Made by a program: the position numbers and the translations under genes
Shown here: piece after piece, positions 12,101-62,980 of the stretch
Layout: each line of letters starts with the position of its first letter
How positions within the stretch are numbered: the stretch's first letter is position 1
NCBI GenBank assembly: GCA_044340745.1
Contig: JBIISZ010000005.1
Location: forward strand, 795 to 64,794
Length of the DNA: 64,000 nucleotides
Direction of reading: 5' to 3'
Origin: Candidatus Saccharimonadales bacterium
GTDB lineage: Bacteria; Patescibacteriota; Saccharimonadia; Saccharimonadales; Saccharimonadaceae
The notes under the pieces: generated by a model
The model's database searches: none
What the model was told of the DNA's origin: nothing
The model's input: only the letters and a program-made list of their open reading frames with translations

Positions 12101-15100
12101 CAACCTCAGCCCCTACCTTCGCTGGCCTGACACTATCAAGCGCCCTTGGTGTTTCAAGTGGTGGTACTGGCGCGGGCAACTTCGCGACGAACGGTGTGGT
12201 AATCGGACAGGGAACAAGCGCTCTGACGACCATCGGAACGACCACGGCTAACCAGTGTCTTATTTCTGGCGCTGGCGGGGTGCTTTCCTTCGCGACCTGT
12301 CCAGGTGCGAACGGGGTCAGTAGCTTCAACGGCCTTACCGGTGCGGTCAGCCTTAATACTGTCACCTCAAGTAGCTTGTTGACGAGCGGTAACACGGTGA
12401 CAATCCGTGATGCGAGCGATGCCGTGAAAGGGCTTGCGGCATTCAACGCCGACAACCTCACTGTCACTAACGGTCTTGTGAACACTGTTCAAAACATCAG
12501 CACATCTTCTTCACCGACCTTCGCAGGCCTTACCTTGACTAACGGGCTAAGCGTCGCTAACGGTGGTACGGGGCAGACCGCTTTGACCGCTAACCGTGTA
12601 CTGCTTGGTAACGGTACGTCAGGTATTGCCGTCAGCAACGAAGCGGCGGCTGGTTTGTGTCTGATCGGTAACGCGAGCGGTGCACCAACCTTCCAGGCAT
12701 GTCCGGTCGGTGGTGACATCTCTTCTGGAACTTCACAGACCGCAGGTGTCGTCGCGATGTTCGATACGACAACGAATAGTATCACTGATTCGATCATCTC
12801 GCAGTCAGGCTCGGTCGTTTCGGTTGGTGGTCAGCTGAGCGCGACGACTCTGAGCGGTAACGGTGCGGCATTGACAAGCCTTAACGCTTCAAACATTGCC
12901 AGCGGAACAGTTGCGAACGCACGCCTTAGCGCAAGCGTGACGCTCCAGGGTAACAGTTTCAACGGAAACAGCCAGCTGGTAAAGCTTGATAGTACTGGTG
13001 CGACGACCGAAAACGGGCTCTGTCTGATGAGCACCGGTTCTGGCACGGGTACGTCATTCCAAGCCTGCCCTGGTTCTAACGCCGCTGTCGGTGCAAACAC
13101 CTCACTTTCGAACCTTTCAAACGTATCTATTAACGACATGCTGCTCCCTGGCGCAAGTAACTCTATCGACCTCGGTAGTGCAAGCCAGACCTTCCGTAAC
13201 CTCTACTTAGGTGGAACGGTAAGTGCGGCAGGGGCTATCAACGGCCTGACACTGACTTCGAACAGCCTCCAGAGTGCAGGTGCGTTGAACTTGAGTGCCG
13301 GTGGTACGAACCAGGCAATCACCGTTGCCGGAAGCGGTTCGGGCGGGGTGACATTGAATGCTGGTACGGGCAGCCTACGACTTACGGGCATCACTTGTAA
13401 CACTTCCGCTAACGGTGGCAAACTGACGACGAATGCCTCCGGTGTCGTAAGTTGTGCCGATGATGTCGGCGGTGTCTCCGTAGTGGGAACGATCGATTCT
13501 CAGACAGCTAGTGCGAACGGCGCGACGATCAACGGGAACACTATCTACCTTCAGACTGCCAGCGCTACGGCAACGGGTGTCGTGACGGCCGGTACTCAAA
13601 CGTTCGGTGGTGATAAGACCTTCGCCGGAGCGACGACCCTACAGGGTGCTTCGACGATGAACGGCACGACAACGATCAATGGTACGCTGTATGTCGGAAA
13701 CGCATCTATGGGCGTTCTTTACACGACGCCTACGGGAATGGTCCAGAAGGCATCTACCGCTGGTGCGTCAATCGGACAGTGTCTCGCGTACACCGCGACG
13801 AACACCCTCGGTTTCCAGAGTTGTGGCGGTACCGGTGGTGGTAATCCGTTCTTGCAGGGTGGTAATGCCTTCAACGCCACGGCCACCCTCGGTGTGACTG
13901 ACAACCAAACACTTAACGTGATCCAGAACAACGCTAACCGTATTTCATTGACGAACGGTGGTAATATCGTCCTTACTCCTGATGTGAACAAGTTCGTATT
14001 CATCGACACTACCGCCGCTGATAGCGAGGCGAAACTGATCGTCGCTGGTCGTATCAAGACGGATACCGGATTCAAGGTCGGTACGGCGACGGGTATCTCA
14101 CTGGCACAGTGTGGTGGCTACATTCAGAACGCGGTCGTGAACGGCGGTATCATCACCGGTGGTAACTGTTCGACCGGTGGTTCGGCGGGTCAAGCGATCG
14201 TCCAGGGTGGTAATGCGTTCAACGGTACTATGACACTTGGTACGACAGACAACTTCGGCATCAATATAGTGAAGCAGGGAAGCACCATGATGGCTATCAG
14301 CCAAGACGGTAACATCGACTTCTCACCAAGCGTGAACAAGTGGGTCCGTATCGGTACGACCAATACTGATGGTAGCGCACAACTGATCGTGAACGGCCGC
14401 ATCAAGTCGATGACCGGTTTCCGCGTCGGTAACTTCGACGGGCTGACGATGAGTTGTGCGAACGGTAACCAGACACTTGGTGCGCCACGGTTTGAGGGGG
14501 GTATCCTGGTCCAGGCAAGCTGTTCGACGAACAACTCCGACCTTGCAGAGAACTATAGCTCGACTGACAACCTCCAAGCTGCCGAAATCGTCATGGCGGC
14601 CGGGTATGCACCTACGGCTGTGAGCCGCGCTACTGCAAGCAACCGCGAAAACCTGATGGGTGTCGTATCGACCGCTCCAGCGCAGACCCTTGGTACGGAA
14701 CAAGTTCCTGAAGGTTTCCCGATTGCGCTGACGGGCCGTGTGCCGGTTAAGGTCAACGGTGAGGGCGGTGCGATCGCTATCGGTGATAAGGTTACGATTT
14801 CAAGCGTACCTGGCGTCGGTAAGAAGGCGACGAACGCCGGTATGATCGTCGGTACCGCCGTCGAGACCTTCAACGGGGTAGGCGAGGGTGCGATCGAGGT
14901 ATTCGTCAACCTGATGTACTGGAAGCCGTCGGGTACCGACATGCTGCAGGCGCAATCTGCGGACATTAACACATTGAACATCTCGGGTATGGCAACGATC
15001 GCTTCACTGACCGTCACGGGCATCGCGACCTTCCAAGGTAACATCATCGTCAACGGACATATCGTGACCGGCGGCGGAGCACCGAACTATAGCGTCGGCG

Positions 15101-15384
15101 CAGCTGCGGGTGCTGGTGCAAGCGTCGTGATTGACGGTAATGACACCGCAGGTACGATTACGATCACCACTGGTGCTGACGTAACAGCCGGTAGTCTCGC
15201 GAACCTCGTATTCAGCCAAGGATATGGCAAGTCGCCTCGGATAATCATCTCCGGCCAGGATGACGCCAGTGTGAACGCCCGCGTCTTCCCGACTGCGAAA
15301 ACTACAGGCGGTTTCTCACTGGGAACATCTCAGGTGCTCGCCCCAAGTACCACCTACACCTTCGACTACTTCATCGTCGAGTAA
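6106..15384 (+). CDS. Giant (~3,092 aa) membrane-anchored fibre/adhesin-like repeat protein with phage tail-fibre-like motifs and a C-terminal autoproteolytic-chaperone-like domain
   Basis: N-terminal TM anchor; 11 copies of a KG[LV]A[SA]F[ND] module; ARTNLGAA..GANxDITSL motifs; NSDLAENY...GVVSTAP...ALTGRVPVKV near the C-terminus. ATG at 6106 preferred over TTG at 6097. Confidence 0.85.
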   Translation: MNRKALLPVVVSLGVFVVIFGVVALYLWNASRQTVSSERSQQSVSAVKELPQLEVNDEPVASTKQVIGGDLKVTGTVSIIDGLSASSLQLTPVSSTANLRAGQLYSANNNALYYYDGRSSANITGGLSTAQVDIARLQTEMQRILSQPDGVLTLQGQSGSVVLAGADGITITGTTISNNGVLTVQGRAGNVQFVSGNGIEVSGTTINNTGVTSVGGQTGTIAIGNGLSISNGTLVSTGITQLISQSSDIIVSNAGGGAYTISYAGSGAGGTVALAPTSPQEDSSNNASIAFNKTGLGNLIQLSTGTNASNKFVVDQSGAIINGSINFSQVTGIPSLVNSIAGLTGTVDLGAGLAVNGGRLVATTAVNNLVGTANQVNVTGSGTLTLSLPQNIATTSSPTFAGLTLTNALTIGNGGTGATTASGARTNLGAAASGANNDITSLSGLTTALSVAQGGIGTNTLTQNGVLIGNGTDAISSVNATGANQCLVSDANGEVSFQGCPGAGGVTSVNGKSGVVTIAGVDPNSIDSTGGTIVIRDASYTTKGLASFNATNFSVLNGSVNTAQDINVGATPTFAGLNLTSALSVANGGTGRTTFATNGLLLGQGTGALSTVGTTTAGQCLVSGTGGVLGFSTCPGATGVTSVNGLTGAITVSTIAASSLSQVGNTITINDATEAIKGLAAFNEDNFVVTNGVVNTIQNISTSATPTFAGLNLDSALAVTSGGTGRTSLAANSILVGNGTSAVSTLGTTVAGQCLASGVGGALSFVTCPGAEVVNSLNGQSGNVSITAIDPSSINTASGVITIRDASYTTKGLASFNGSNFSVIDGAVDTVQNIGTTATPVFEGLTLNSALGVASGGTGASSFAANSLLIGQGTSAVTSLGTNTAGQCLISGTGGYLSFASCPGSNGVASINGLIGAVTLRGISASSVLTSGSTVTIQDATDTIKGLAAFNSSNLVVTNGVVNTIQDISVNAAPTFAELTLTSPLAVSSGGTGRTTFALNSVLVGNGSAGLSSVSATGDNQCLISAADGSLSFTTCPGATGVNSINGLSGNLTLNAADPNSIASSGTTITLRDASNLRKGLASFDGTNFTVTNGAVNLIQDIGTGATPTFAGLNLGTALSVTNGGTGATNIEDARTNLGAAASGANTDITSLGSVTSLTSAANLSLSASNGTLTLQGAATVLEQSDGTNSTKLIFQNPTADVTYTLQTAAAGTYEVCTTAGNCVGVGGGVTTSGGTIGRLSRFISGSAIGDSIITDDGSTVSIGGTLSVNNITPSAAAVIGATTQSLSLQGSTTSISSTGGATTNTLTFATPSGVSKTITIPNASGTVAISATGPLVLDANGNLTCPTCLTSGGGGGGATGVSGINGITGDITLVASDASTITTSGTTITINDATATRKGVAAFNNTNLTVTNGVVNTIQNISTTATPTFAGINLNSPLTVANGGTGRTSLPKGIVIGNGTDPVTILAPTGASECLASDSGSNLVFVACPGTSVVNFLNGLNGTVTIDTVSGSSLAISGNNIRIQDATAAIKGLASFNSDNLTVTNGVVNTIQDISTSSAPTFNGLTLNTALGLASGGTGATTAPAARNNLGAASRGANSDITALSGLTTALSVGQGGTGQTTLTANRVLLGNGTSGVAVSNAASAGMCLVGNSSGAPSFQACPGADGVRTFNSLNGDVTLDTTSASSLVVSGNNIRIQDATSSIKGLASFDGNNLTITNGTVNTAQNITTSATPTFAGLNLTAALGVASGGTGRTSLTTNGVLVGQGTSAVSTVSTTTAGQCLVSGTGGSLSFASCPGSGGVSSLNSLNGAVTIDTVTPSSLLITGNNIRIQDATSSTKGLASFNTDSLTVTNGAVTTVQSINTSATPTFAGLTLTTPLGVASGGTGRSTLAANSLIIGNGTSAVSTLGTNAAGKCLVSGTGGVLSFLDCPGASVVNSLNGVSGTLSITAVDPASIDTTGSTITIRDASYTTKGLASFNGGNFIVSNGAVNTIQNISTTSAPTFAGLTLSSALGVSSGGTGAGNFATNGVVIGQGTSALTTIGTTTANQCLISGAGGVLSFATCPGANGVSSFNGLTGAVSLNTVTSSSLLTSGNTVTIRDASDAVKGLAAFNADNLTVTNGLVNTVQNISTSSSPTFAGLTLTNGLSVANGGTGQTALTANRVLLGNGTSGIAVSNEAAAGLCLIGNASGAPTFQACPVGGDISSGTSQTAGVVAMFDTTTNSITDSIISQSGSVVSVGGQLSATTLSGNGAALTSLNASNIASGTVANARLSASVTLQGNSFNGNSQLVKLDSTGATTENGLCLMSTGSGTGTSFQACPGSNAAVGANTSLSNLSNVSINDMLLPGASNSIDLGSASQTFRNLYLGGTVSAAGAINGLTLTSNSLQSAGALNLSAGGTNQAITVAGSGSGGVTLNAGTGSLRLTGITCNTSANGGKLTTNASGVVSCADDVGGVSVVGTIDSQTASANGATINGNTIYLQTASATATGVVTAGTQTFGGDKTFAGATTLQGASTMNGTTTINGTLYVGNASMGVLYTTPTGMVQKASTAGASIGQCLAYTATNTLGFQSCGGTGGGNPFLQGGNAFNATATLGVTDNQTLNVIQNNANRISLTNGGNIVLTPDVNKFVFIDTTAADSEAKLIVAGRIKTDTGFKVGTATGISLAQCGGYIQNAVVNGGIITGGNCSTGGSAGQAIVQGGNAFNGTMTLGTTDNFGINIVKQGSTMMAISQDGNIDFSPSVNKWVRIGTTNTDGSAQLIVNGRIKSMTGFRVGNFDGLTMSCANGNQTLGAPRFEGGILVQASCSTNNSDLAENYSSTDNLQAAEIVMAAGYAPTAVSRATASNRENLMGVVSTAPAQTLGTEQVPEGFPIALTGRVPVKVNGEGGAIAIGDKVTISSVPGVGKKATNAGMIVGTAVETFNGVGEGAIEVFVNLMYWKPSGTDMLQAQSADINTLNISGMATIASLTVTGIATFQGNIIVNGHIVTGGGAPNYSVGAAAGAGASVVIDGNDTAGTITITTGADVTAGSLANLVFSQGYGKSPRIIISGQDDASVNARVFPTAKTTGGFSLGTSQVLAPSTTYTFDYFIVE
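7600..12710 (+). repeat. Intragenic degenerate tandem repeat, ~134-aa (~400-nt) unit, 11 copies
   Basis: KGLA[SA]F anchors near 7730, 8130, 8535, 8940, 9340, 10300, 10700, 11220, 11620, 12025 and 12425; most units end in a CL-x(9-10)-F-x2-CP motif. Confidence 0.9.
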
Positions 15385-24421: not shown

Positions 24422-27400
24422 GTGAACGAGCACGCTCCGACGACTGCGACGACGAACCCTGAGCCTCTCAAGGTCGTCTTAGTTGACCAGTCGAAGGACG
24501 CGCAGGATGAAGCACGTGACTTGGCAGATGCCCGACTGGATCGTGAGCTAGGCGAGGGTGGTAAGATCCGACAATTCCTGAACGGTATATGGAAGGGTAA
24601 TCTTGCCCGTGACTTTTACCGACAGAGGTACGTCAGCCAGGCACTCGAAACCATACAGACGTCCAACAACGTACTAGCTGATTCACCGGCGGAACGCCGC
24701 GCCAGGGCCCTCGAATCGACTATCGAACGGTTCCAAAGCGAACATGACGAAGTCATTCACGAGAGCGCGGGCGAGCGCCGTGAAGTGCAAGCCGCCGACA
24801 GTGTATTGGCGGTAGGGGTAAAAAATATTATCCGGCAAGCAGTCGAGCGGGCTCAGACATCAGGCCGTCCATTAAACGTGCAGGTACTTCAGGAAGAGCG
24901 AAATCGCTTCCTGAACGAATACCGCAAACAGCACGGCGAGGACGCACTTGGTAAGGGTATCGTCATGGCGGACAATATGTTCGATATTGCCCAGACGGTG
25001 TATGGTGTCGTGGAGCATGGCGAAAGCTTGGACCACGCACTTGGTCGCCTAGAAGTCGTGACAGGTGAAGCGCGTAACGGGGCGCGTACTGAAGCGAAGT
25101 ATACCGCCGTTGATAAAAGTATCGACTGGCTTTCTAAGAAAGGGCTTGCGTCCTTTATTACCCCCGGCGCCTTAGCGACCGGGGTTGCTGCCGGAATGGC
25201 TATCGCGCGTGTGACTGGGCACGGTGTCGTGGGGGCGGCTACCAAAACCTTGCTTCCAGGTGTCGCGGCGGGTGCCTGGGCGGCGCTTCGCGAGAACAAG
25301 CGTACGAAAGACGACCGTTCACAACACGCCCGTGAAATGGCGGTCGGTGGGGAGTTCGCTCAGGATGACAAACGGCGTACCGAGATGGAGCGCACGCGTT
25401 ACGAGTCGGTGGCTGCCGTAGAACTTATTACTCAGCTGCAAGAGGCTTCCACCGAAGAACGGCTCGAAGCCGGGGGCAACGATGCGTTGCAGGCAGCCCT
25501 TGACGCCCTTGCCGCCGCGCAGGCGCGCATCCAACTTTCTGATAGCCGAAACATCGACCTTGTGAGCTATTCTTCAAAGGAAGACGTCGGCGAAGAGCGC
25601 ATGATGCTCGACCTCGCTCGTCGGGAGGCACGCTTAGCAGTCGAACAACGCCTTACCCCTGAAGCACGCGCTGCACTTAACTTAGGTCCTACCGCAAGCG
25701 CGCGGGGACTTATCGACCAAAGAGCCCTGCTTTTCTCAAGGGTGTTGATTGAAGGTGAGGAAGGACAGGAAGGTATTGACCAGAAAGACGCCGCCTTCGC
25801 GAAACTCAAAGCGAAGCGCGTGGCTACGGCTGCGGCTATCGGTGTCGCGACAGGTGTCGTCGGCGGGCTGGTCGTACAAGAAACAGTCGCCGCGTTTGAT
25901 TCGACCCGTTTCGGACTTATTGATGCTATTCGAGGGGAGACGGCCGTACCATTCGAGGGGACCGGTGAAGTACATCAGACGATCCTTGAAGGGATGATAA
26001 GGGGTGACGAGACCATCATTCATACTGATGCTGCTGATACGTACGAAGCATATCCGACAGGTGAAAACGGAAGCATCGAAGTTACGAGCGACCATACGCT
26101 TGAGACAAATGAAGACGGCACCCTGAGTCTTATAGATGGCAACGGAAAAGCCTCCGTAGAAGGCCTTGTGATTGACGCGAACGGAACGCTTGATCAAGCC
26201 TCACTCGATAAGCTTGAAGCTGCCGGTATGGTTGTTGAGGACAAGTCGTTCGATGAAACAATTCAGACACAGACGACCGAACAGGTATCTACCGATCAGT
26301 ACATCCAGAATCATGCAGCCGAAACGACTCGTGTTACGCGTGATCTTTGGTACGGTAATGATACCCCAGGCGTATTTGATCAGAACGAACTTCGCGTATA
26401 TCGCGGGGGAAGCGATGCGGCGCCGGGAATCGTCGAGGGCGGATACCAGTATACCGTGGCCGGCATGACCCAGAACGGTTCATGGCAAGGCGGTGAGCGC
26501 GTCGACTGGAACCAGGCGGCATCTAACGGTAACTTGTTCGTCGCAATATCTGGTACGTATGATTCACAGGGTAATCCGTTCATGATTCCAATCGGCCCTG
26601 ATGGCGCCGTGAACATCCCTGCTGACAGCCCGGCCGGACAGTTCTTTGCCAATGAGAATAATTCAGTCGCCTTCAACGGTGCGTACATGGAAATCGTTCA
26701 GACGACCGGGCAAGATGCTGAGGGTGTTGTTCACATTCGTCCACTGGCGACCCTCGTAGGGGATACGAGCGTCGAGCTGGTGAATGATACCGTCACGACG
26801 GAAAGTATCGTGCACCATGCGGAATATTCCATTACCACGAACGGCTATGATACTGCCCAGGCCAACGCGACCGAGACGGCGCCGATCACTCCGATTGCTT
26901 CACGGCGGTCTATGGAAGCTTTACGGAACGAAGGTAGTGAAAATACACCCGAAACTTCTCCCGCGACTCCTTCTGAAACTGCAAGTGGCTACGGCTACGA
27001 AAACGGCCGTATCAGCCCTGACAGGCTACGCCGATGGGAGAGTGAACGCTCACCGCGCCTCCGTGAAAACCCTGACGCGGAGCTTGAGACACTTGAAGAA
27101 GTCGATTTCTACTATGAGCAACAACGCCAGCGTCGCGGTGAGGCGTACGTACAGGAAATCGAAGCCAACGTCGACCAAAGTGAAGCGCTACAGGCAATTG
27201 ATACTGACTCTCGCGCTATCATCGTAATGCCGGTCGGTGCTGCACAGGAATCGGAAAACATATACGAAGCGTTATCGTTGTATGCTCAACAGGATGAAGA
27301 TGCCCAGAAGAAAACGACAATACTCTTGAACGTAAACTGGATCAGTGACGCGACGAACGACCCTGAGAAGAAGGCGAAGATCGACAAGACCTTGAGCGAG

Positions 27401-28558
27401 ATCCAACGTGCCCAAGCCGACTTCCCTCAGCTCAACATCGCACAATTTACCAAAGTCTGGGATCGCGATTGGGTAGATGGCGTCCGTAACAAGAAGATAT
27501 ACGGTGAAGTGATCAAGACACTCTACGATACGGCAGCCTTTGCCGTTCGTCGCGCGATTAAAGAGGGCCGTGCGACACCTGATCAAGACTTGCTGCTTAT
27601 TACGAACGATGCCGACCAGAAGGGTATGCACCGCCATTACCTCCAACATTATGTCGCAGCTGAAGAGCAATATAAAGACTCAGACGCCTTTATCGGCACG
27701 ATCCGTTGGGGTGTCGAGACGGCCCGCGACTTCCCTGGGTACCATGTTTCGCAGCTATTCATGCAGGCTATGAATATCGCCGCAACACGTCCGACGAACC
27801 ACTCGCTTGCGCCGGCTACTATCGGCCCTAACTCGGCGTTCCGCGTATCGACGTATGCCGCTATCGGTGGCTGTGAGGACCGTGACGACCTCGGTGTCGG
27901 TGCGGATTCTGAATTAGGACGAAAGGTCCTGGCTGCTCGTGGCCGTTTGCCTGAAAAGAGCGGTAACGGATATGGTGGTCTTGGGACGACCTATCTCACA
28001 GGGTCGACAGTCGGTCCTGGTAGCCGCGAGCGGGTTATTCGCCAGGTGATCGGCTCTGATATCGATTCCGCTCCGGGTCGCTTGCTTGATTCGGCATATC
28101 GCCTTGATAACTTCATCCCGCACGCCTGGAACGAGTTCGACAATGGATCTACTCGTGAAGACGACAAGAATAACCCGAACCTGATCATAAAAGAAGACGC
28201 GCGAAAAGACTTCGCGCCAATCCGTCAGCGTGTCGAACGTCAGATCACCGACTTCATCAATCATTGGTATCCGGATCAGGCGGTCGCAAGCTTCACGTTG
28301 TCGATGCTATTCCCTGACGTACCTGAATTGAAGAATAATGCTCAAGCGTGGACGCTCCGCCAGCAGTCAGACGGTTCGTACCGCTTCGCCTTTACGACCG
28401 ACGGTGCGCGTCGCTTCAAGAATTCACTCCTCCGTTCTAAGGGCCGATTCGATCCGATTGCGAACCGTTTGCGCCGCAGGGTATATGGCGAAGTGCGTCC
28501 AGGTGCTAAGATTCGTCCGGTAGCGGCCGAGGCGCCCCTTGTGAGAGCTACCGCCTAA
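24422..28558 (+). CDS. Large (1,378 aa) membrane-associated protein with a C-terminal GT-A/GT2-like glycosyltransferase domain
   Basis: Two Gly/Ala-rich hydrophobic regions, a beta-rich middle, then IIVMPV...LLITNDAD...GPNSAFRVSTYAAIGG...ADSELGR. Confidence 0.7.
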   Translation: MNEHAPTTATTNPEPLKVVLVDQSKDAQDEARDLADARLDRELGEGGKIRQFLNGIWKGNLARDFYRQRYVSQALETIQTSNNVLADSPAERRARALESTIERFQSEHDEVIHESAGERREVQAADSVLAVGVKNIIRQAVERAQTSGRPLNVQVLQEERNRFLNEYRKQHGEDALGKGIVMADNMFDIAQTVYGVVEHGESLDHALGRLEVVTGEARNGARTEAKYTAVDKSIDWLSKKGLASFITPGALATGVAAGMAIARVTGHGVVGAATKTLLPGVAAGAWAALRENKRTKDDRSQHAREMAVGGEFAQDDKRRTEMERTRYESVAAVELITQLQEASTEERLEAGGNDALQAALDALAAAQARIQLSDSRNIDLVSYSSKEDVGEERMMLDLARREARLAVEQRLTPEARAALNLGPTASARGLIDQRALLFSRVLIEGEEGQEGIDQKDAAFAKLKAKRVATAAAIGVATGVVGGLVVQETVAAFDSTRFGLIDAIRGETAVPFEGTGEVHQTILEGMIRGDETIIHTDAADTYEAYPTGENGSIEVTSDHTLETNEDGTLSLIDGNGKASVEGLVIDANGTLDQASLDKLEAAGMVVEDKSFDETIQTQTTEQVSTDQYIQNHAAETTRVTRDLWYGNDTPGVFDQNELRVYRGGSDAAPGIVEGGYQYTVAGMTQNGSWQGGERVDWNQAASNGNLFVAISGTYDSQGNPFMIPIGPDGAVNIPADSPAGQFFANENNSVAFNGAYMEIVQTTGQDAEGVVHIRPLATLVGDTSVELVNDTVTTESIVHHAEYSITTNGYDTAQANATETAPITPIASRRSMEALRNEGSENTPETSPATPSETASGYGYENGRISPDRLRRWESERSPRLRENPDAELETLEEVDFYYEQQRQRRGEAYVQEIEANVDQSEALQAIDTDSRAIIVMPVGAAQESENIYEALSLYAQQDEDAQKKTTILLNVNWISDATNDPEKKAKIDKTLSEIQRAQADFPQLNIAQFTKVWDRDWVDGVRNKKIYGEVIKTLYDTAAFAVRRAIKEGRATPDQDLLLITNDADQKGMHRHYLQHYVAAEEQYKDSDAFIGTIRWGVETARDFPGYHVSQLFMQAMNIAATRPTNHSLAPATIGPNSAFRVSTYAAIGGCEDRDDLGVGADSELGRKVLAARGRLPEKSGNGYGGLGTTYLTGSTVGPGSRERVIRQVIGSDIDSAPGRLLDSAYRLDNFIPHAWNEFDNGSTREDDKNNPNLIIKEDARKDFAPIRQRVERQITDFINHWYPDQAVASFTLSMLFPDVPELKNNAQAWTLRQQSDGSYRFAFTTDGARRFKNSLLRSKGRFDPIANRLRRRVYGEVRPGAKIRPVAAEAPLVRATA

Positions 28559-31425: not shown

Positions 31426-33369
31426 CTATAATAAACTCCCTGGGTCTAATTCGCTCTGCCAATGTGTCGGTGGAAGCAAGGCAAGGGCCTGTACGAGCGC
31501 ATCGCGCTTCGTACTTTTTAGGATCAATTGCCAGCGGTAGGTGTCATGCTGACGCTCGTAGAAGGCCGGTGTCGGGCCTAAGATAGAGACCTCTTTAGGA
31601 ATGGTGCGCCGTAACTCGGCGGCAAGCGCTTTCGCATTGCGGATGGCCGCCGCTTCGGTCTTGTAGACGTCAGTGAGCTGTAAAAGGTAGCGGAACGGAG
31701 GGAAGCCGGCTTTTTGACGCTCGGCAAGCGCATACTGATAAAACCCTTCATAGTCCTGGGCGAGCCCATAGTCGATAACCGGATGTGTCGGTTGATACGA
31801 CTGGACGACGACGTCAGTGGTGCGTTCGTCGCGACCGACACGGCCTACTACCTGTGCAAGCAGCTGGAAAGCGCGCTCATCAGCGGCATAATCGGGTAGT
31901 GCCAGCCCGCTATCAGCTTGGATGATCGCTACCGTATTGAGCTTCGGAAGGTCGAGCCCTTTGGCTACCACTTGCGTGCCGATAGCGATATCAATCGTCC
32001 CGTCGTAGAGCTCTTTGTATCGCGAGGCTACAGTCTCATCCTTGGTGTTATCGGAATCAAAGCGGGCGATACGCGCCTTCGGAAACAAGCGCCGCAGTTC
32101 ACTTTCGATAAGTTTCGTGCCGATACCTTTATGAATAATATCTGCCGACTGGCACACCGGGCAGGCCGTTGGTACCTTGTCGGAGTATCCGCATATGTGG
32201 CAGCTTAGCTGGAACGTATCGGCATGGAGGATAAGTGGGACGAAACAGCGTGGGCAGTCTGCTGACCAGCCGCAGTTCTCGCACAAAGTCGTACTGGCGC
32301 TTCCGCGTCGGTTATGGAAAATCAATGTTTGTTTACCGCTGGCGATATTCTCGTCAAAACGGTTGATGAGAACATCGGAAAAGAAACGGTGTTTCTTGAA
32401 GTTTTCTCTCTTCTTCATATCGATAACGCGAACGGTCGCTTTAGCTGCGTTTCCCTTTGCGCGTCGCGTCAGTTGGATAATAGGGGAGCCGTGTGCTTCT
32501 GCGACGTAGCGATCAGTGATGAGAGGTGTTGCACTCCCGAAGACGACTCGGGCGTCAGCGAACTTACCGAGCATCGTAGCGGCACGAAGCGCCGAATAGC
32601 GGGGCGCTTGCTCTTGTTTGTAGCTTGGCTCGTGGGCTTCATCAATCACAATCAACCCTACCCGCGGCACTGGCATGAAAAGAGCCGATCGAGGCCCTAT
32701 GGCAATAAGCGGCTGTTCTGCCGCGAGCGCCTGTTTCCAGGCGACGTGCCGCTCTGCTTCGGTCATTTGAGAGTGGGTAACGATGGTATGAGGGAATTCG
32801 TGTGCGAACTCGTCGACAATCTGGCTTGTTAGACTGATCTCGGGTACGAGTACGATGACGGAGTTACCTGCCGCAAGGGTCCGCCTCGCGAGCTCCTTGT
32901 ATACCTCTGTTTTTCCTGATCCTGTGACCCCTTGCAGCAGGGTAGTTGCAGGAGTGGCGTCCATGATCGTGGCGACCGCCGCCGACTGTTCAGCATTGAG
33001 TACAATTTTTGTTCGATCACGGATACTTTCTTGCTCCGCCGACGGGGCTTTACTGCGTCGTTTGACAGTTAGTCCACGGGGGAGAACGGTCTGGAGGACG
33101 GTCGCGAAAGGGGTGCGGTAATAATCACTGATCCATTGACTGAGGCTGACCAAGGCTATAGGAAGCGGACGGTCTTCGATGATTCCGATAATCTCTTTCG
33201 TATCGTAAGGCGGTTTTTCAACTTCCTTTATGACGACTCCGTTCAAGTTCTGTTTACCGACAGGGATAGTTACTAAACTGCCGATTGCAAGGGCGCCTTC
33301 AGAGGCGTACGTGAACGAAGCTTGTCCGGCACGAACAATCTTCGTCGGGGCGACCTCATAAAACTTCAT
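31426..33369 (-). CDS. priA: Primosomal protein N' (replication restart helicase)
   Basis: GVTGSGKTEVY, LVPEISLT, DEAHEPSYKQ, CxxC x4, GTQVVAKGLD, QVVGRVGR. Confidence 0.96.
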   Translation of the reverse strand: MKFYEVAPTKIVRAGQASFTYASEGALAIGSLVTIPVGKQNLNGVVIKEVEKPPYDTKEIIGIIEDRPLPIALVSLSQWISDYYRTPFATVLQTVLPRGLTVKRRSKAPSAEQESIRDRTKIVLNAEQSAAVATIMDATPATTLLQGVTGSGKTEVYKELARRTLAAGNSVIVLVPEISLTSQIVDEFAHEFPHTIVTHSQMTEAERHVAWKQALAAEQPLIAIGPRSALFMPVPRVGLIVIDEAHEPSYKQEQAPRYSALRAATMLGKFADARVVFGSATPLITDRYVAEAHGSPIIQLTRRAKGNAAKATVRVIDMKKRENFKKHRFFSDVLINRFDENIASGKQTLIFHNRRGSASTTLCENCGWSADCPRCFVPLILHADTFQLSCHICGYSDKVPTACPVCQSADIIHKGIGTKLIESELRRLFPKARIARFDSDNTKDETVASRYKELYDGTIDIAIGTQVVAKGLDLPKLNTVAIIQADSGLALPDYAADERAFQLLAQVVGRVGRDERTTDVVVQSYQPTHPVIDYGLAQDYEGFYQYALAERQKAGFPPFRYLLQLTDVYKTEAAAIRNAKALAAELRRTIPKEVSILGPTPAFYERQHDTYRWQLILKSTKRDALVQALALLPPTHWQSELDPGSLL

Positions 33370-33390
33370 CTTCTCAGTATAGCGCTTCGG

Positions 33391-33517
33391 GGCAAAACCG
33401 CCGCATACTCTTGCAGGATAGACTCAAAGCCAAGTGCAGCCCTTGAAATTACATCGCTATGACGTGAATTTCAAGGCGCGTAACGGTCTATCGACAAGAG
33501 TATGCGGTGGTTTTGCC
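33391..33517. repeat. Dispersed ~127-bp long-hairpin element, copy 1
   Basis: 23-bp inverted arms (33391-33413 and 33495-33517); the core 33421-33488 matches the reverse complement of 60499-60566 with two differences. Confidence 0.85.
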
Positions 33518-33540
33518 TGCAGTAATGCTAGAATAAGCAT

Positions 33541-34197
33541 ATGTATTTTGAGAGTCGTGTACAGGCCGGACAGCAACTAGCAGCCGACCTGGTGGGTAAA
33601 TACCGGTATGAGAACTGTGCGGTCGTCGCATTGAGCGACGGCGGTGTCGTCGTGGGTGAGTGGATCGCGGCGACGTTGCACTGCGTTCTGACGATGCTTC
33701 TCGTCGAAAATATCGAGGTTCCGGGTGAAAGTATGAGTTTCGGTGGCGTTTCGCAGACAGGGCAGTTCACGTACAACAGTGAATTTTCATCTGGCGAGAT
33801 TGAGGAATATACTTCCGAATTTCACGGGTACCTTGATGAACAGAAGCGCGAAGCGTTCCAGCGGATCAACCGACTCCTGGGGGATGGGGGGTTGATTGAT
33901 AGGGAATTACTGCGCGATCGGACGATCATCTTGGTCGATGACGGATTTTCCCAAACCGGCATTATCGATGTGGCGCTCGACTTCCTGAAGCCGATCCGGA
34001 TCAATCGTCTCGTCATAGCAGCCCCTGTTGCTTCGGTAGCTGCTGTTGACCAGCTCCATATCGCCGCCGACGAGCTTCATATCCTTGATGTGAAGTCGAA
34101 TTACCTCGATACGAACCATTATTATGCTCAGAACGACGTCCCTTCGCACGAAGATACGGTCGATAAAATAAACAAAATTATCCTGAATTGGCGTTGA
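33541..34197 (+). CDS. Phosphoribosyltransferase-family protein
   Basis: VVALSDGGVVVG and PRPP-binding IILVDDGFSQTG, AAPVAS. Confidence 0.8.
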   Translation: MYFESRVQAGQQLAADLVGKYRYENCAVVALSDGGVVVGEWIAATLHCVLTMLLVENIEVPGESMSFGGVSQTGQFTYNSEFSSGEIEEYTSEFHGYLDEQKREAFQRINRLLGDGGLIDRELLRDRTIILVDDGFSQTGIIDVALDFLKPIRINRLVIAAPVASVAAVDQLHIAADELHILDVKSNYLDTNHYYAQNDVPSHEDTVDKINKIILNWR

Positions 34198-58814: not shown

Positions 58815-59600
58815 ATGGCAACGGTGATTGCGGTGACAAATCAAAAGGGGGGCGTCGGTAAGACGACGACCTCTATCAATTTGGCCTACTTTTTGGCGAA
58901 AGCCGGAAAGAAGACCCTATTAATCGACTTTGACCCGCAAGGGAATGCGACGAGCGGTTTGGGTATCGATAAGTCCTTACTGACGGCGACGATGACCGAA
59001 GTAATCAAGGGTGAAGCAACGCTTGACCAGACGATTGTCGCGACAGATCATAAGAACCTCTGGATCGCACCGACGACCTCGATTCTTGCAAATACCGAGG
59101 TAGAACTTGCTCAGACGGATAAGCGGTTCTCGCGCTTGAAGCTGGCGATAGATTCGAGCGAGTTCGAATATGAATATATCATTATTGACAGTCCGCCAAG
59201 TCTGAGCCTTCTGACCGTCAACGGCCTGATTGCCGCGCGCTTCGTACTGTTGCCGGTTCAGGCTGAATTCTACGCCTTGGAAGGCCTCGGGCAACTCTTA
59301 GAAACGATGAAACTTGTGCGCAAGGGGATGAACCCGTACCTGGAGCTTCTTGGGGTACTGCCGACGATGATGGATTCTCGTACTACTTTGAGCAACCAGG
59401 TGCATGCTGAAATAAAGCGACACTTCCCAGGAAAAGTCTTTGAATCGACTATTCCTCGTAATATCCGCCTCGCCGAAGCGCCAAGCCACGGTATTCCTAT
59501 TGGTGTCTATGACAAATTCTCAAAGGGTTCACGCGCGTACAAGGCGCTTGCTAAAGAAGTCATTACCCGCGTAGAGGCGCCTGCGGAGGCACAATCATGA
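58815..59600 (+). CDS. parA: Chromosome partitioning ATPase ParA/Soj
   Basis: NQKGGVGKTT, DFDPQGNAT, IIDSPPSL, PVQAEFYALEG, IPRNIRLAEAPSHG. Confidence 0.96.
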   Translation: MATVIAVTNQKGGVGKTTTSINLAYFLAKAGKKTLLIDFDPQGNATSGLGIDKSLLTATMTEVIKGEATLDQTIVATDHKNLWIAPTTSILANTEVELAQTDKRFSRLKLAIDSSEFEYEYIIIDSPPSLSLLTVNGLIAARFVLLPVQAEFYALEGLGQLLETMKLVRKGMNPYLELLGVLPTMMDSRTTLSNQVHAEIKRHFPGKVFESTIPRNIRLAEAPSHGIPIGVYDKFSKGSRAYKALAKEVITRVEAPAEAQS

Positions 59601-60472
59601 GCGCGAAAAAAGGGCTAGGGCGTGGGTTCGATTCGTTGATCCCGACGGATCTTTTTGATGATAGCTTTGACCCGACGGCCCAGCAGGACCAGAAAGTAAG
59701 CGAAGAGAAAACGCTTCCTATCGCGAAGCTACAGGCAAACCCTGATCAGCCGCGCCGTATGTTTGATGAAGAAGCATTGAACGAACTTGCTGCATCTATC
59801 AAAGAGCACGGCGTGATACAGCCGATCATCGTGACTCCGAAAGGTGATACGTATCAAATCGTTGCCGGTGAACGCCGCTACCGTGCCTCAAAGTTAGCAG
59901 GGCTCACGGAAGTGCCCGTGGTCATCCGTTCCATGACCGACCAACACCAGCTAGAGGTATCCCTTATTGAAAACATTCAGCGACGGGACTTGAATACGAT
60001 CGAAACGGCAACTGCGTATGCGAAACTTCGTGACCAGTTCAATTTATCCAACGATCAGATCGCACAGCGTGTCCATAAATCGACCCCCGCCGTCATCAAC
60101 ACGATGCGCCTATTAAAGCTGCCGAAAGAAGTCATCCAGGCAATCGCCGACGGAACGCTCAGCGAAGGGCAAGCTCGACCTTTGATCGGTCAGGACCCTG
60201 AATTACTCGCCGAGCTCGTTCCAAAAATTATTTCTGAAGAATGGACCTCAAGAAAAGTCGAACAGTACATCGTCAATATCAAGAAGGCGCAAAAAGCAGA
60301 CGCACCAGCTGACACGCCTGTCGACTCCGAGCACGAAGCGCGTATCGAAGCACTTCGTCAAAGGCTGAACGCACCGATTGACCTCCGCGTGAACAGTAAA
60401 GGTGCCGGTAAGATCGTCATTTCTTTCAAGAATTCAGATGAATTCGAACGTATTCGTAAGTTACTTGGCTAG
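59597..60472 (+). CDS. parB: Chromosome partitioning protein ParB/Spo0J
   Basis: GLGRGFDSL, NPDQPRR, IVAGERRYRA, LIENIQRRDL. Confidence 0.96.
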   Translation: MSAKKGLGRGFDSLIPTDLFDDSFDPTAQQDQKVSEEKTLPIAKLQANPDQPRRMFDEEALNELAASIKEHGVIQPIIVTPKGDTYQIVAGERRYRASKLAGLTEVPVVIRSMTDQHQLEVSLIENIQRRDLNTIETATAYAKLRDQFNLSNDQIAQRVHKSTPAVINTMRLLKLPKEVIQAIADGTLSEGQARPLIGQDPELLAELVPKIISEEWTSRKVEQYIVNIKKAQKADAPADTPVDSEHEARIEALRQRLNAPIDLRVNSKGAGKIVISFKNSDEFERIRKLLG

Positions 60473-60597
60473 GAAGAAACCCCGTTATCTGACGGGTGGA
60501 CCGTTACGCGCCTTGAAATTCACGTCATAGCGATGTCATTTCAAGGGCTGCACTTCGCTTTGAGTCCACCCTTACAGATAACGGGGTTTCTTCCTAG
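60469..60597. repeat. Dispersed ~129-bp long-hairpin element, copy 2
   Basis: Perfect 23-bp inverted arms CTAGGAAGAAACCCCGTTATCTG (60469-91 and 60575-97); core shared with 33421-33488 in the opposite orientation. Confidence 0.85.
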
Positions 60598-60608
60598 ACC
60601 CAGATTAC

Positions 60609-61208
60609 TTAAAACGTTCGAATCTTATTGAACGGGAAGATACGGACGCCGACCGGACCGACGACGTCGTAGAGTGGGACGGTTCCGAGGCCGTTTCGTG
60701 AGTCATACGAATAGCTGCCGGTACGGTGATCACCGGTGACGAACAAGTTACCTTCGGGGACGATAGTGTCGATTTGGCCGGTCGTCGGTGAGCCAGGTTC
60801 GCCGTTATTTTCATCATCCGGGTTGAACCCTTGGGGATTTTGTTCGTTATACACAGTAAATGTGCCGTTTTGCAGTACGACACGTTCGCCTGGAAGGCCA
60901 ATGACCCGTTTTACGATGTATTCATCTTCGATGCCCCTGCTGTAGTGAGGGTTTTTGAAAACGATGACTTGCCCGCGTTCTGGAATGTACGGGGTGTTAC
61001 GCAGGTTCGCCCAGGTGACCGGAAGCCGATTCACGATAAGTCGATCGCCAGTGTAGAGGGTCGTTTCCATGCTCGGGCCGACGACATTATAGCTGCGAAA
61101 TACGAAGGTATTGATTAGTACGGTACCAATGACCACACAGATAATGAAAATCGATAGCTGTAAAATATCTTTGACGAAGGGGTGTCGGGTAAAAAAAGAG
61201 GCTTCCAT
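60609..61208 (-). CDS. lepB: Signal peptidase I
   Basis: VVGPSMETTL (Ser), YIVKRVIGLPG (Lys), GDHRTGSYSYDSR; ATG at 61208 preferred because 61220 overlaps the -10. Confidence 0.93.
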   Translation of the reverse strand: MEASFFTRHPFVKDILQLSIFIICVVIGTVLINTFVFRSYNVVGPSMETTLYTGDRLIVNRLPVTWANLRNTPYIPERGQVIVFKNPHYSRGIEDEYIVKRVIGLPGERVVLQNGTFTVYNEQNPQGFNPDDENNGEPGSPTTGQIDTIVPEGNLFVTGDHRTGSYSYDSRNGLGTVPLYDVVGPVGVRIFPFNKIRTF

Positions 61209-61330
61209 AAACCATTCCATTATACGTGAGCGCTATCGGAAACACCACCTGGAAGCAGTTTTTAGCATAAGCTTTTTGGAAGCTGAATATGCTTGCAAGC
61301 GAGGGGATAGTGTATAATGGTATAAGTTTT

Positions 61331-62980
61331 ATGATTAAAAACACCTCTTCAGTTGACGGGTTTATCCCACGACGACCCGGCACGCAGCTGGGGTCTTTGC
61401 ATGACGAAAAGCCTACTCGAAAGCGTACCCAAACCTCGGCTAACCGAAGCCTTCAGACGAGTGGTTCTACCGTAGTTTCTGCTGATACAGTCGGCCAGCC
61501 GCGCCGGGGGCGTGTCATCGGTCGTGACGATATCGATGAGTCACTGCGTGAAATCGACAATTTAGAGCCTGAAAACGGGAAAAAACCGAAAAAGGGTCGT
61601 CGTAAAGATCGAAAAGCGAACAAACCTAAAAGCAAAGCGCGACGAATTGTTTTTTGGGTGTCGATGGCGCTACTCGCAATTCTTGTAGGGGTTGGTGGGT
61701 TCTTGGCATTCAAGGCCATCACCGCGACGCAGACGGTATTCCAGGGAAGTGTCCTTGACCTTATTCAGAACGAACCGCTGAAAGAAGACGCGAATGGTCG
61801 GAGTAACTTCCTCGTATTCGGTACTGCTGAAGACGATGAAGGCGGTGAGCACGGCGGGGCGAACCTGACCGACTCGATCATGGTGATCAGCGTCGACCAA
61901 GATAAGAAGAACGCATACATGCTCAGCCTTCCTCGTGACTTATGGGTGCAGTACCAAGAAACCTGTACGGTAGGGAACCAAGGAAAACTGAACGCAGCGT
62001 ATTTCTGTGCTTCTAACGATGGCGAAGACGAGCAAGCCGGAGCCGAAGCCTTAATGGCAAAAGTCGGGGAAATTACCGGCCTTGAAATGCAGTACTATGT
62101 ACACCTTAACTTCACCGCTGTCGTCCAGGCAGTCGATGCGGTCGGTGGTGTCGACGTGACGATTCAGAGTGAAGATCCACGCGGTATCTTGGACCGTAAC
62201 TTCGACTGGAAGTGTAACTACACGTGTTACTACGTCAATTACAAGAATGGCCAGCAGGCGCATCTTGACGGCGAGCGAGCTCTTGCCCTTGCCCGAGCCC
62301 GTAATGCCGCAGGCGGGTACGGACTCCCAAACGGGAACTTTGACCGCGAGAAAAATCAGCAGATGATCATTAAGGCGCTTCGCGACAAGGCGCTCAGCGT
62401 GGGTACCCTGACGAACGTCGGTGCGGTCACTGGATTGATCGACGCTTTGGGGAATAACCTTCGTACGAACATTCAAACCAAAGAAATCCGAACGCTTATG
62501 GATGTCGCATCAAAGACGACCGATGAAAACATCATCTCCCTGAGCTTGAACGAAGAGGGAAACATGCTTGTGACAACGGGAAGCTACAACGGCCAGAGCA
62601 TTGTTCGACCGGTCGCTGGCCTCCTCGACTACAGTCAGATCCATGCCTATGTACAAAAGAGTACCTCGAGCGATCCGTTCGTAAAGGAAGAGCCGCATGT
62701 TACGGTCTTGAATGGAAGCGGTGAAGCGGGGGTCGCGCAGCGGCTCGCGGATCAGCTTGAAGATCGTGGCTTCGTCATCGATGCCGTCGATAACGCTCCT
62801 GATGGTACCTACCAGGCAATTGAAATTTATCAGATCAACAAAGAAAAGACCGCCACCGCGGCTAAGCTAAAAGAGCTCTATAAGGTGACTTTAAAAACGA
62901 CGACGCCTCCGGTGAGTGTAGTAGGTGAGACTGATTTCGTGATCATCATCGGTAGTGCCAGCGCCGTTCCTGCCGAATAA
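61331..62980 (+). CDS. LCP (LytR-CpsA-Psr) family glycopolymer transferase with a C-terminal LytR_C domain
   Basis: LTDSIMVIS, SLPRDLWV, KLNAAY, ALARAR, DFDRxxxQQ-like NFDREKNQQ; C-terminal VTVLNGSG...A. Confidence 0.9.
   Translation: MIKNTSSVDGFIPRRPGTQLGSLHDEKPTRKRTQTSANRSLQTSGSTVVSADTVGQPRRGRVIGRDDIDESLREIDNLEPENGKKPKKGRRKDRKANKPKSKARRIVFWVSMALLAILVGVGGFLAFKAITATQTVFQGSVLDLIQNEPLKEDANGRSNFLVFGTAEDDEGGEHGGANLTDSIMVISVDQDKKNAYMLSLPRDLWVQYQETCTVGNQGKLNAAYFCASNDGEDEQAGAEALMAKVGEITGLEMQYYVHLNFTAVVQAVDAVGGVDVTIQSEDPRGILDRNFDWKCNYTCYYVNYKNGQQAHLDGERALALARARNAAGGYGLPNGNFDREKNQQMIIKALRDKALSVGTLTNVGAVTGLIDALGNNLRTNIQTKEIRTLMDVASKTTDENIISLSLNEEGNMLVTTGSYNGQSIVRPVAGLLDYSQIHAYVQKSTSSDPFVKEEPHVTVLNGSGEAGVAQRLADQLEDRGFVIDAVDNAPDGTYQAIEIYQINKEKTATAAKLKELYKVTLKTTTPPVSVVGETDFVIIIGSASAVPAE

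Follow-up and report, generated by a model that had tools for sequence, protein, structure and literature searches.

Dispersed hairpins with a conserved internal-loop module and variable arms constitute an undescribed family in Saccharimonadales

Two long hairpins found in the window (the whole 64,000-nt stretch of Candidatus Saccharimonadales DNA analysed here) proved to be real members of an undescribed, low-copy family restricted to Saccharimonadales, in which the two strands of an internal bubble are kept almost unchanged and pairing is all that is required of the middle stem and the long basal arms. Genomes can do without the element, which is low in copy number, comes and goes as a unit at gene junctions that tolerate it, and can be flipped. 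We tentatively prefer to read it as a non-autonomous hairpin, mobile or duplicative, with a conserved loop module that would be recognised on a folded single strand.

Both copies had been described in an earlier note based on the sequence alone, and both were verified, W1 at 33391-33517 (+) and W2 at 60469-60597 (-), with an anatomy matching that description:

33391..33413, + strand: W1 5' arm, 23 nt, partner 33495-33517, one G.U pair at 33400/33508
33414-33416, + strand: W1 loop strand CAG
33417-33423, + strand: W1 middle stem, 5' strand GATAGAC, 7 bp, covarying across the family
33424..33440, + strand: W1 5' bubble strand TCAAAGCCAAGTGCAGC, invariant or near-invariant columns in alignments of 27-29 copies
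33441..33476, + strand: W1 apical hairpin, with a 9-10-bp AT-rich lower stem, a conserved irregularity, a short upper stem and a loop
33477..33485, + strand: W1 3' bubble strand CGCGTAACG, conserved in the family alignments
33486-33492, + strand: W1 middle stem, 3' strand GTCTATC, pairing with GATAGAC
33493-33494, + strand: W1 loop strand GA
33495-33517, + strand: W1 3' arm
60597-60575, - strand: W2 5' arm (arms 60469-60491 / 60575-60597, 23/23 paired)
60574-60572, - strand: W2 loop strand TAA
60571-60564, - strand: W2 middle stem, 5' strand, 8 bp
60563-60547, - strand: W2 5' bubble strand
60546-60511, - strand: W2 apical hairpin
60510-60502, - strand: W2 3' bubble strand
60501-60494, - strand: W2 middle stem, 3' strand
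60493-60492, - strand: W2 loop strand GT
60491-60469, - strand: W2 3' arm

The W1 arms (33391-33413 / 33495-33517) form 22 Watson-Crick pairs besides the G.U pair, and the folding energies of W1 and W2 were -68.9 and -75.2 kcal/mol, respectively (z = -10.4 and -13.0 versus dinucleotide shuffles). The 3x2 loops reported previously are present (CAG/GA in W1, TAA/GT in W2), the middle stems differ by compensatory changes (GATAGAC/GTCTATC in W1 versus GGGTGGAC/GTCCACCC in W2), and in both copies a 17x9 bubble is followed by the 9-bp stem CCTTGAAAT/ATTTCAAGG; the two substitutions that separate the cores are C/G in the bubble and T/G at the start of the apical loop. The bubble has the size initially proposed but is not fully open: it contains a 2-bp helix that shows G-C to A-U double changes (G26-C75 in alignment A5, with A-U in two copies, L024+ and L021-). 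In W1 the 5' strand TCAAAGCCAAGTGCAGC begins with the U.G closing pair, followed by the A-rich bulge of 9 nt and then by GU, GCA and GC. The 55-nt core pattern occurs twice in the window versus 0.00 occurrences expected, and a full covariance-model scan of the 64 kb matched W1 and W2 and no third copy. Two other segments were considered as extra copies and rejected: 25796-25850 (+), with 21 bits and E ~0.002, which lies within an ORF of 1378 aa and is probably a chance match, and 61617-61698, a weak model match in coding, lysine-rich and A-rich sequence that was also taken as chance. The former contains ACTCAAAGCGAAGCGCG, close to the 5' bubble strand, a similarity that is probably fortuitous, a relic being possible.

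To find further copies, a gapped pattern derived from the two bubble strands was run on species-representative genomes and metagenome contigs. It retrieved 8 stretches from the former, 8/8 of them in Candidatus Saccharibacteria or Saccharimonas MAGs, and 19 from the latter; the sole match on a viral contig looks like chance. A covariance model (R1) built from 26 cores recovers 29 copies with scores of 63-93 bits, to which two more were added in loci included later. Every one of the 29 lies in Saccharimonadales DNA (candidate phylum Saccharibacteria); in the divergent subfamily L010 the neighbouring gene is a Saccharimonadales RNase J. W1 and W2 therefore belong to a dispersed family and are not just two duplicated copies. 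The proposal that it is undescribed also held: no Rfam 15 family matched the element regions of 20 loci, lowering the threshold to E<10 produced only noise (viral frameshift, IRES and miRNA-precursor models, far below threshold), a literature text search for the core sequence was empty, and nothing similar to the whole element was found among phage and plasmid records. At gathering score, no Rfam 15 family is present anywhere in the 64-kb window, which therefore does not have even a tRNA gene. Known structured RNAs were observed in the vicinity of other copies. A LOOT RNA (RF03000, 72.9 bits) is located at L007:7264-7386 (-), beside a tRNA and 3.6 kb from a hairpin copy, and is unrelated to the hairpin in sequence and fold, and at L015 (934-1269, 1954-2055, 4817-5231) the hairpin copy has the RNase P RNA gene on one side and the tmRNA gene on the other.

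Copy number was about eight per genome, according to the ratio between core k-mer depth and flank depth, which was ~8 in three metagenomes containing the window strain (150/19.5, 80/10 and 2750/350); several distinct flanks were visible.

Across the family the element is a rod-shaped hairpin spanning 100-165 nt, and its most conserved parts are the two bubble strands, 5' UAAAAGCGAAGUGCAGC and 3' CGCGUAACG (U-A-A-A-A-G-C-G-A-A-G-U-G-C-A-G-C and C-G-C-G-U-A-A-C-G, respectively). They form part of a module of ~62 nt that comprises, in this order, a U.G closing pair that is invariant in the family alignment, the 9-nt A-rich bulge AAAAGCGAA, 2 bp, a GCA/GUA 3x3 loop, another 2 bp, a bulged C and, last, the apical hairpin with its conserved mismatch. 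The sequence of the apical hairpin is of several types, all of which combine a lower stem rich in AT and a short upper stem rich in GC with a 1x1 mismatch; the mismatch keeps its position and is mostly C.A, sometimes U.C, A.G or a bulged C, and never Watson-Crick. Pairing was found in 96.4% of the cells of the middle and apical stems, versus 71.5% in shuffles, double (compensatory) changes affect 17 of the 22 stem pairs, and the covariation score is 0.631, compared to 0.158 in shuffles and <=0.12 when partners are slid. Such strong covariation over 29 copies bears out the idea, advanced from two copies only, that selection acts on structure plus core sequence.

The arms consist of 17-45 bp with near-perfect pairing and differ in sequence between loci, and between them and the middle stem there is a small loop rich in purines, most often of the tandem GA type. 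The fixed geometry of a 23-bp arm and a 3x2 loop that had been proposed is therefore a feature of W1 and W2 and not of the family. Similarly, the arms of most copies are unrelated, W1 and W2 among them, but locus specificity is not complete, since homologous arms with compensatory substitutions were found both in orthologues (W2 and L036) and in some paralogues (L003, L004 and L008).

Which strand is under selection could be deduced from mismatches in the arms. With strand-symmetric scoring, 51 transition-type mismatches were of the G.U type and 18 of the A.C type (p = 9e-5); the count depends on the rule used, being inflated to 57 versus 3 when arm extension accepts G.U and uninformative (6 versus 4) under an over-strict rule. 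In fixed windows of 25, 35 and 45 nt, the arms plus middle stem folded better on the sense strand in 27 copies and worse in none, in 25 versus 2, and in 22 versus 5, respectively. The arms thus favour the strand on which the core is written, and it follows that one single strand is selected, either RNA or single-stranded DNA. The invariant U.G closing pair and the purine-rich GA/GA inner loops are in line with this. For the apical hairpin the energy bias is reversed, the complementary strand giving the more stable fold in 26 of 28 copies, because of the conserved 1x1 mismatch; this mismatch is never Watson-Crick and sometimes involves a transversion, and it was therefore read as a conserved irregularity rather than as pairing of the opposite strand.

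The genomic setting of the window copies was as the earlier note had it. W1 is located between the divergent starts of priA (31426-33369, -) and a phosphoribosyltransferase-like gene (33541-34197, +; PRTase), upstream of the leaderless promoters of both, and W2 between the convergent stop codons of parB (59597-60472, +) and the signal peptidase gene lepB (60609-61220, -), with the parB stop codon (60470-60472) falling within the W2 arm. The following features flank them:

33376..33381, - strand: -10 box of priA, TATACT, followed by 6 nt and the ATG at 33369; flanks W1, outside the element
33526..33534, + strand: extended -10 of the phosphoribosyltransferase-like gene, TGCTAGAAT, followed by 6 nt and the ATG at 33541; flanks W1
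60442..60454, no strand assigned: outer inverted repeat, partner 60611-60623, in the 3' coding ends of parB and lepB around W2; p ~0.002

Both divergent genes appear to be leaderless (33367-33381, -, and 33526-33543, +, in the window, and orthologous positions in L024, L025 and L032-L034). The -10 has the form TGnTAnAAT in the PRTase gene and in the priA orthologues of L024 and L034, and is a plain TATACT in priA of the window; the TGCTAGAAT-type extended -10 is kept at 6/6 orthologous loci. Mirror-image leaderless promoters are also present at the orthologous priA/PRTase loci, and it is because of them that the outer intergenic region looks palindromic, so that the palindromy reaching the divergent start codons (L005, L034 and W1) was discarded as a feature of the element. 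The sequence AGTATAGC upstream of W1, considered as a promoter of its own, turned out to be the priA leaderless promoter on the other strand. Around W2, the last codons of parB (EFERI) and lepB (KIRTF) form the inverted repeat ATTCGAACGT, which is found in the window and in L038 and not in L035-L037, where LepB ends in TEMRFF or TGIRGF. Since L038 has the same repeat around an unrelated hairpin, the repeat is a property of the gene ends. An orientation dictated by the replication strand was rejected as well, W1 and W2 being on opposite strands of a window throughout which GC skew has one sign.

Gain and loss were compared at two junctions, priA/PRTase and parB/lepB, and relatives with clean empty sites were found for both window loci. 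At the priA/PRTase junction, occupied by a single copy in the window, L024 and L025 have a pair of copies placed head to head (such pairs exist in L021, L024 and L025). Between L024:8600-8960 and L025:1390-1750 the flanks and the minus-strand copy are ~95% identical; in the plus-strand copy half of the stem positions differ, always with a change in the partner, and this divergence could be due to allelic replacement by recombination or to very fast stem turnover. The closest relative, L032, has a 90-nt spacer without a hairpin at this junction. In L033 (9835-10003, -) there is a hairpin in opposite orientation that lacks the A-rich bulge and has CTGCAGCC and GCGCGAAGCCGTC where the family has GTGCAGCC and GCGCGTAACGGTC; this hairpin may be related to the family, in a degenerate or divergent form that escapes the model. 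In L034 the entire 228-nt spacer (9776-10003) is a near-perfect palindrome with 37-bp arms and -130 kcal/mol, the interior of which is unrelated to the family. At the parB/lepB junction, L036 carries an orthologue of W2 that shares its TAA/GT loop. The site is empty in L037 and in L035, which comes from the MAG that also contains L032, and the two stop codons there are separated by 7 nt or overlap; the closest relative (the L032/L035 MAG) thus has neither of the window copies. The same junction holds a different hairpin of 151 nt, with 29-bp perfect arms and its own core, between lepB and parB of L038 (1200-1352), and a 92-nt non-hairpin spacer in L039. Long hairpins of several families therefore seem to occupy the same junctions in Saccharimonadales.

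One contig, from a strain with 98.6% identity to the window in the parB flank, has the core reversed between the same arms, running from parB through the arm into the core in opposite orientation. As to a likeness to invertons, this flipped contig is the only one, the contigs from three deeply sequenced samples containing the window strain showed no second orientation, and no recombinase is located nearby. W1 and W2 differ by 2 nt in their cores, compared to ~10 nt between W2 and its orthologue in L036, so that cores within a genome are more alike than orthologues and must be homogenised or replaced within the genome.

Under the reading that we prefer, a hypothetical trans-acting factor would recognise the loop module on the folded strand carrying UAAAAGCGAAGUGCAGC, which could be a transcript or single-stranded DNA exposed during replication or recombination; the long near-perfect arms would serve as a double-stranded handle presenting the module, and recombination from arm to arm would flip the core. 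The factor is hypothetical because no candidate enzyme was found in the window or beside any copy. As the earlier note had stated, the Pfam-annotated genes of the window include no transposase, integrase, reverse transcriptase, HUH enzyme or recombinase, and a RAYT (Y1 HUH) gene is equally missing among them; two large ORFs, 6097-15384 (+; 3095 aa) and 24422-28558 (+; 1378 aa), have no Pfam hit on record. Clustering of 129 ORFs neighbouring the copies gave no recurrent family except the orthologous priA, and no transposase, HUH enzyme, recombinase or reverse transcriptase is encoded next to any copy. The hairpin may still be a single-stranded DNA substrate of an HUH or tyrosine recombinase, a possible role for which the window has no such gene. 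The arms do not seem to be guides or spacers, those of W1 and W2 having no match in IMG/VR or elsewhere in the window. Weighing against a mobile hairpin, the conserved bulges, the 3x3 loop and the mismatch are more typical of a protein-binding RNA, RNA-derived contigs cover the element, and the comparison of filled and empty sites revealed no clear target-site duplication or defined element ends.

Several known repeats offer partial parallels. REP/BIME elements and REPINs, mobilised by RAYT (HUH) transposases, are likewise dispersed extragenic palindromes; they act as a hairpin on a single strand, are polymorphic for insertion and rely on a factor whose gene lies elsewhere. However, arms are conserved and loops vary in REP, and here the arms vary and the internal loop is conserved, which makes the family the reverse of REPIN/MITE logic, as had been claimed; in addition, REP copies are counted in hundreds and accompanied by a RAYT gene, in contrast with the ~8 copies found here. 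Regarding MITEs, terminal arms are not common to the copies, and no clear duplication was seen between filled and empty sites. Rickettsia palindromic elements, Correia elements of Neisseria and enterobacterial ERIC/IRU sequences are palindromic units of 100-150 nt at gene boundaries which, like the hairpin element, vary in presence among strains, comprise several families per clade and are often co-transcribed. Unlike in the hairpin element, the whole unit is conserved in them, including the terminal repeats, and they have no strictly conserved unpaired module between non-conserved stems. Integron attC sites, also found at gene boundaries, are strand-specific hairpins of 60-140 nt defined by their structure, with variable sequence and a preserved fold, but they conserve the base (R''/R' boxes, RYYYAAC / GTTRRRY) and vary at the apex, the opposite of what is observed here, and are arranged in cassette arrays next to an integrase, whereas the hairpin element has neither array nor integrase. 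Membership in the REP, MITE, attC, retron or 6S groups was discarded, some of the features that define each of them being different from those of the family.

A possible alternative is that the copies constitute a family of small non-coding RNA genes, with about eight paralogues per genome that produce rod-like sense transcripts and undergo gene birth and death. It is a close rival of the mobile hairpin because the conserved irregularities look like those of a protein-binding RNA: covariation together with conserved bulges and loops is typical of structured RNA, and the excess of G.U on the sense strand of the arms, the tandem GA loops and the invariant U.G pair fit the same picture. The internal-loop module would then probably bind a protein, as an RNP scaffold, decoy or sponge, and the basal stem would be a double-stranded RNA handle, probably trimmed by RNase III; as part of the same possibility, the likeness among paralogues could stem from gene conversion or co-evolution with the partner, and birth and death would explain presence and absence. 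There are also indications of transcription. A contig from a lake metatranscriptome covers 33391-33616, beginning exactly at the first base of the arm, and for a 900-nt stretch of L005 the contigs from four RNA-derived runs (three wastewater RNA libraries and one transcriptome) are limited to the element and its immediate flanks; these contigs are of low depth, carry no strand information and may include DNA, so transcription of the element is likely but unproven. Other data fit worse with dedicated RNA genes. A position-weight scan of 25 copies gave no enrichment of a conserved -10 box on the sense side over the antisense side, and no consistent U-tract follows the 3' arm across the element flanks. 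Copies are found in all four gene-orientation contexts, usually 0-30 nt from the flanking genes, and in co-directional contexts 9 are antisense and 3 sense, their orientation being unrelated to the direction of the neighbours. Finally, the absence of both window copies in the closest relative and the presence of other hairpin families at the same junctions also argue against this alternative. Under either explanation we infer that a protein binds the loop module.

Near-identical cores between unrelated arms could result from insertion into palindromic gene ends or from templated copying of a flank, both of which are possibilities. Along these lines, we consider it rather unlikely, although worth stating, that the hairpins represent a new type of mobile element of ultra-small bacteria, in which only the ~62-nt core would be transmitted or homogenised between sites, the arms would be site-specific and either acquired or rebuilt, recombination between arms would flip the core, and an enzyme would act on the folded strand with the conserved loop module as its handle. 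Site-specific arms would arise if the core landed in the centre of palindromic gene ends, or if one flank were copied onto the other. The latter resembles the inverted flank duplication suggested in the earlier note, for which only a weak and ambiguous hint was obtained. The parB-side arm is weakly similar to the lepB end of empty sites (p = 0.04 and 0.27), where direct and inverted matches are indistinguishable because the lepB-end region is itself quasi-palindromic; given these values, and the presence of the outer W2 repeat also in L038, arms copied from the flank are only a faint possibility.

A local role in cis, as a terminator, an insulator of convergent genes or a cruciform absorbing supercoils between divergent promoters, seems improbable. 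The copies do fill intergenic gaps tightly, W1 is placed where the polymerase footprints of two divergent leaderless promoters meet and W2 between convergent genes, but the occurrence in every orientation context, the missing U-tract and the relatives devoid of the element at the same junctions are difficult to reconcile with such a role, which would need neither a strict 26-nt unpaired module nor strand asymmetry. An intrinsic terminator, in particular, was rejected: there is no consistent T-run, and copies are located between divergent promoters and antisense to both neighbours.

Very improbable is a retron-like or other RNA that serves as template for a reverse transcriptase encoded elsewhere, with the arms as a1/a2, priming from G16 of the AGC and copying of the apical hairpin into cDNA. 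As in a retron msr-msd, locus-specific inverted repeats bracket a conserved core and an invariant AGC G is found near the top of the stem, and a hairpin selected as cDNA would be expected to favour the complementary strand, as the apical hairpin does in 26/28 copies; yet this advantage is due to the one conserved, never Watson-Crick mismatch. The closing repeats are present and the G is 5 nt from the last pair; only 10 nt separate G16 from the apical hairpin, with no msr stem-loops ahead of the supposed template. The core is much shorter than in retrons, and the suggestion does not hold up against ~8 dispersed and variably present copies, no msr stem-loops, and no reverse transcriptase in the window or beside any copy. 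The weakest option, a 6S-like open-promoter mimic sequestering RNA polymerase, has in its favour the rod shape, the large asymmetric bubble, the adjacent AT-rich stem and UAAAAG in a bubble strand, but 6S RNA is a single-copy, Rfam-detectable housekeeping RNA with stable synteny and a longer terminal stem, none of which applies to an element with no 6S model match even at E<10, ~8 copies per genome, changes in presence and orientation among close relatives and an apical side of just 9-14 bp plus a short upper stem, and we consider it scarcely credible.

The ~1-Mb genomes of Saccharibacteria contain hardly any non-coding DNA and few mobile elements that can be recognised. In this context, 26 unpaired nucleotides that are almost invariant in many species have to be read by something, and the same family is free to change over 60 nucleotides that are paired, and it enters and leaves gene junctions. 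RNA and DNA are both conceivable as the active form. The element explains the breaks of Saccharibacteria genome assemblies at these sites, and covariance model R1 can be used to annotate it in genomes. If the element acts as RNA, a phylum that is still poorly understood would gain a new ribonucleoprotein component; if it acts as a DNA hairpin, it would point to an unrecognised recombination or transposition system in Saccharibacteria.
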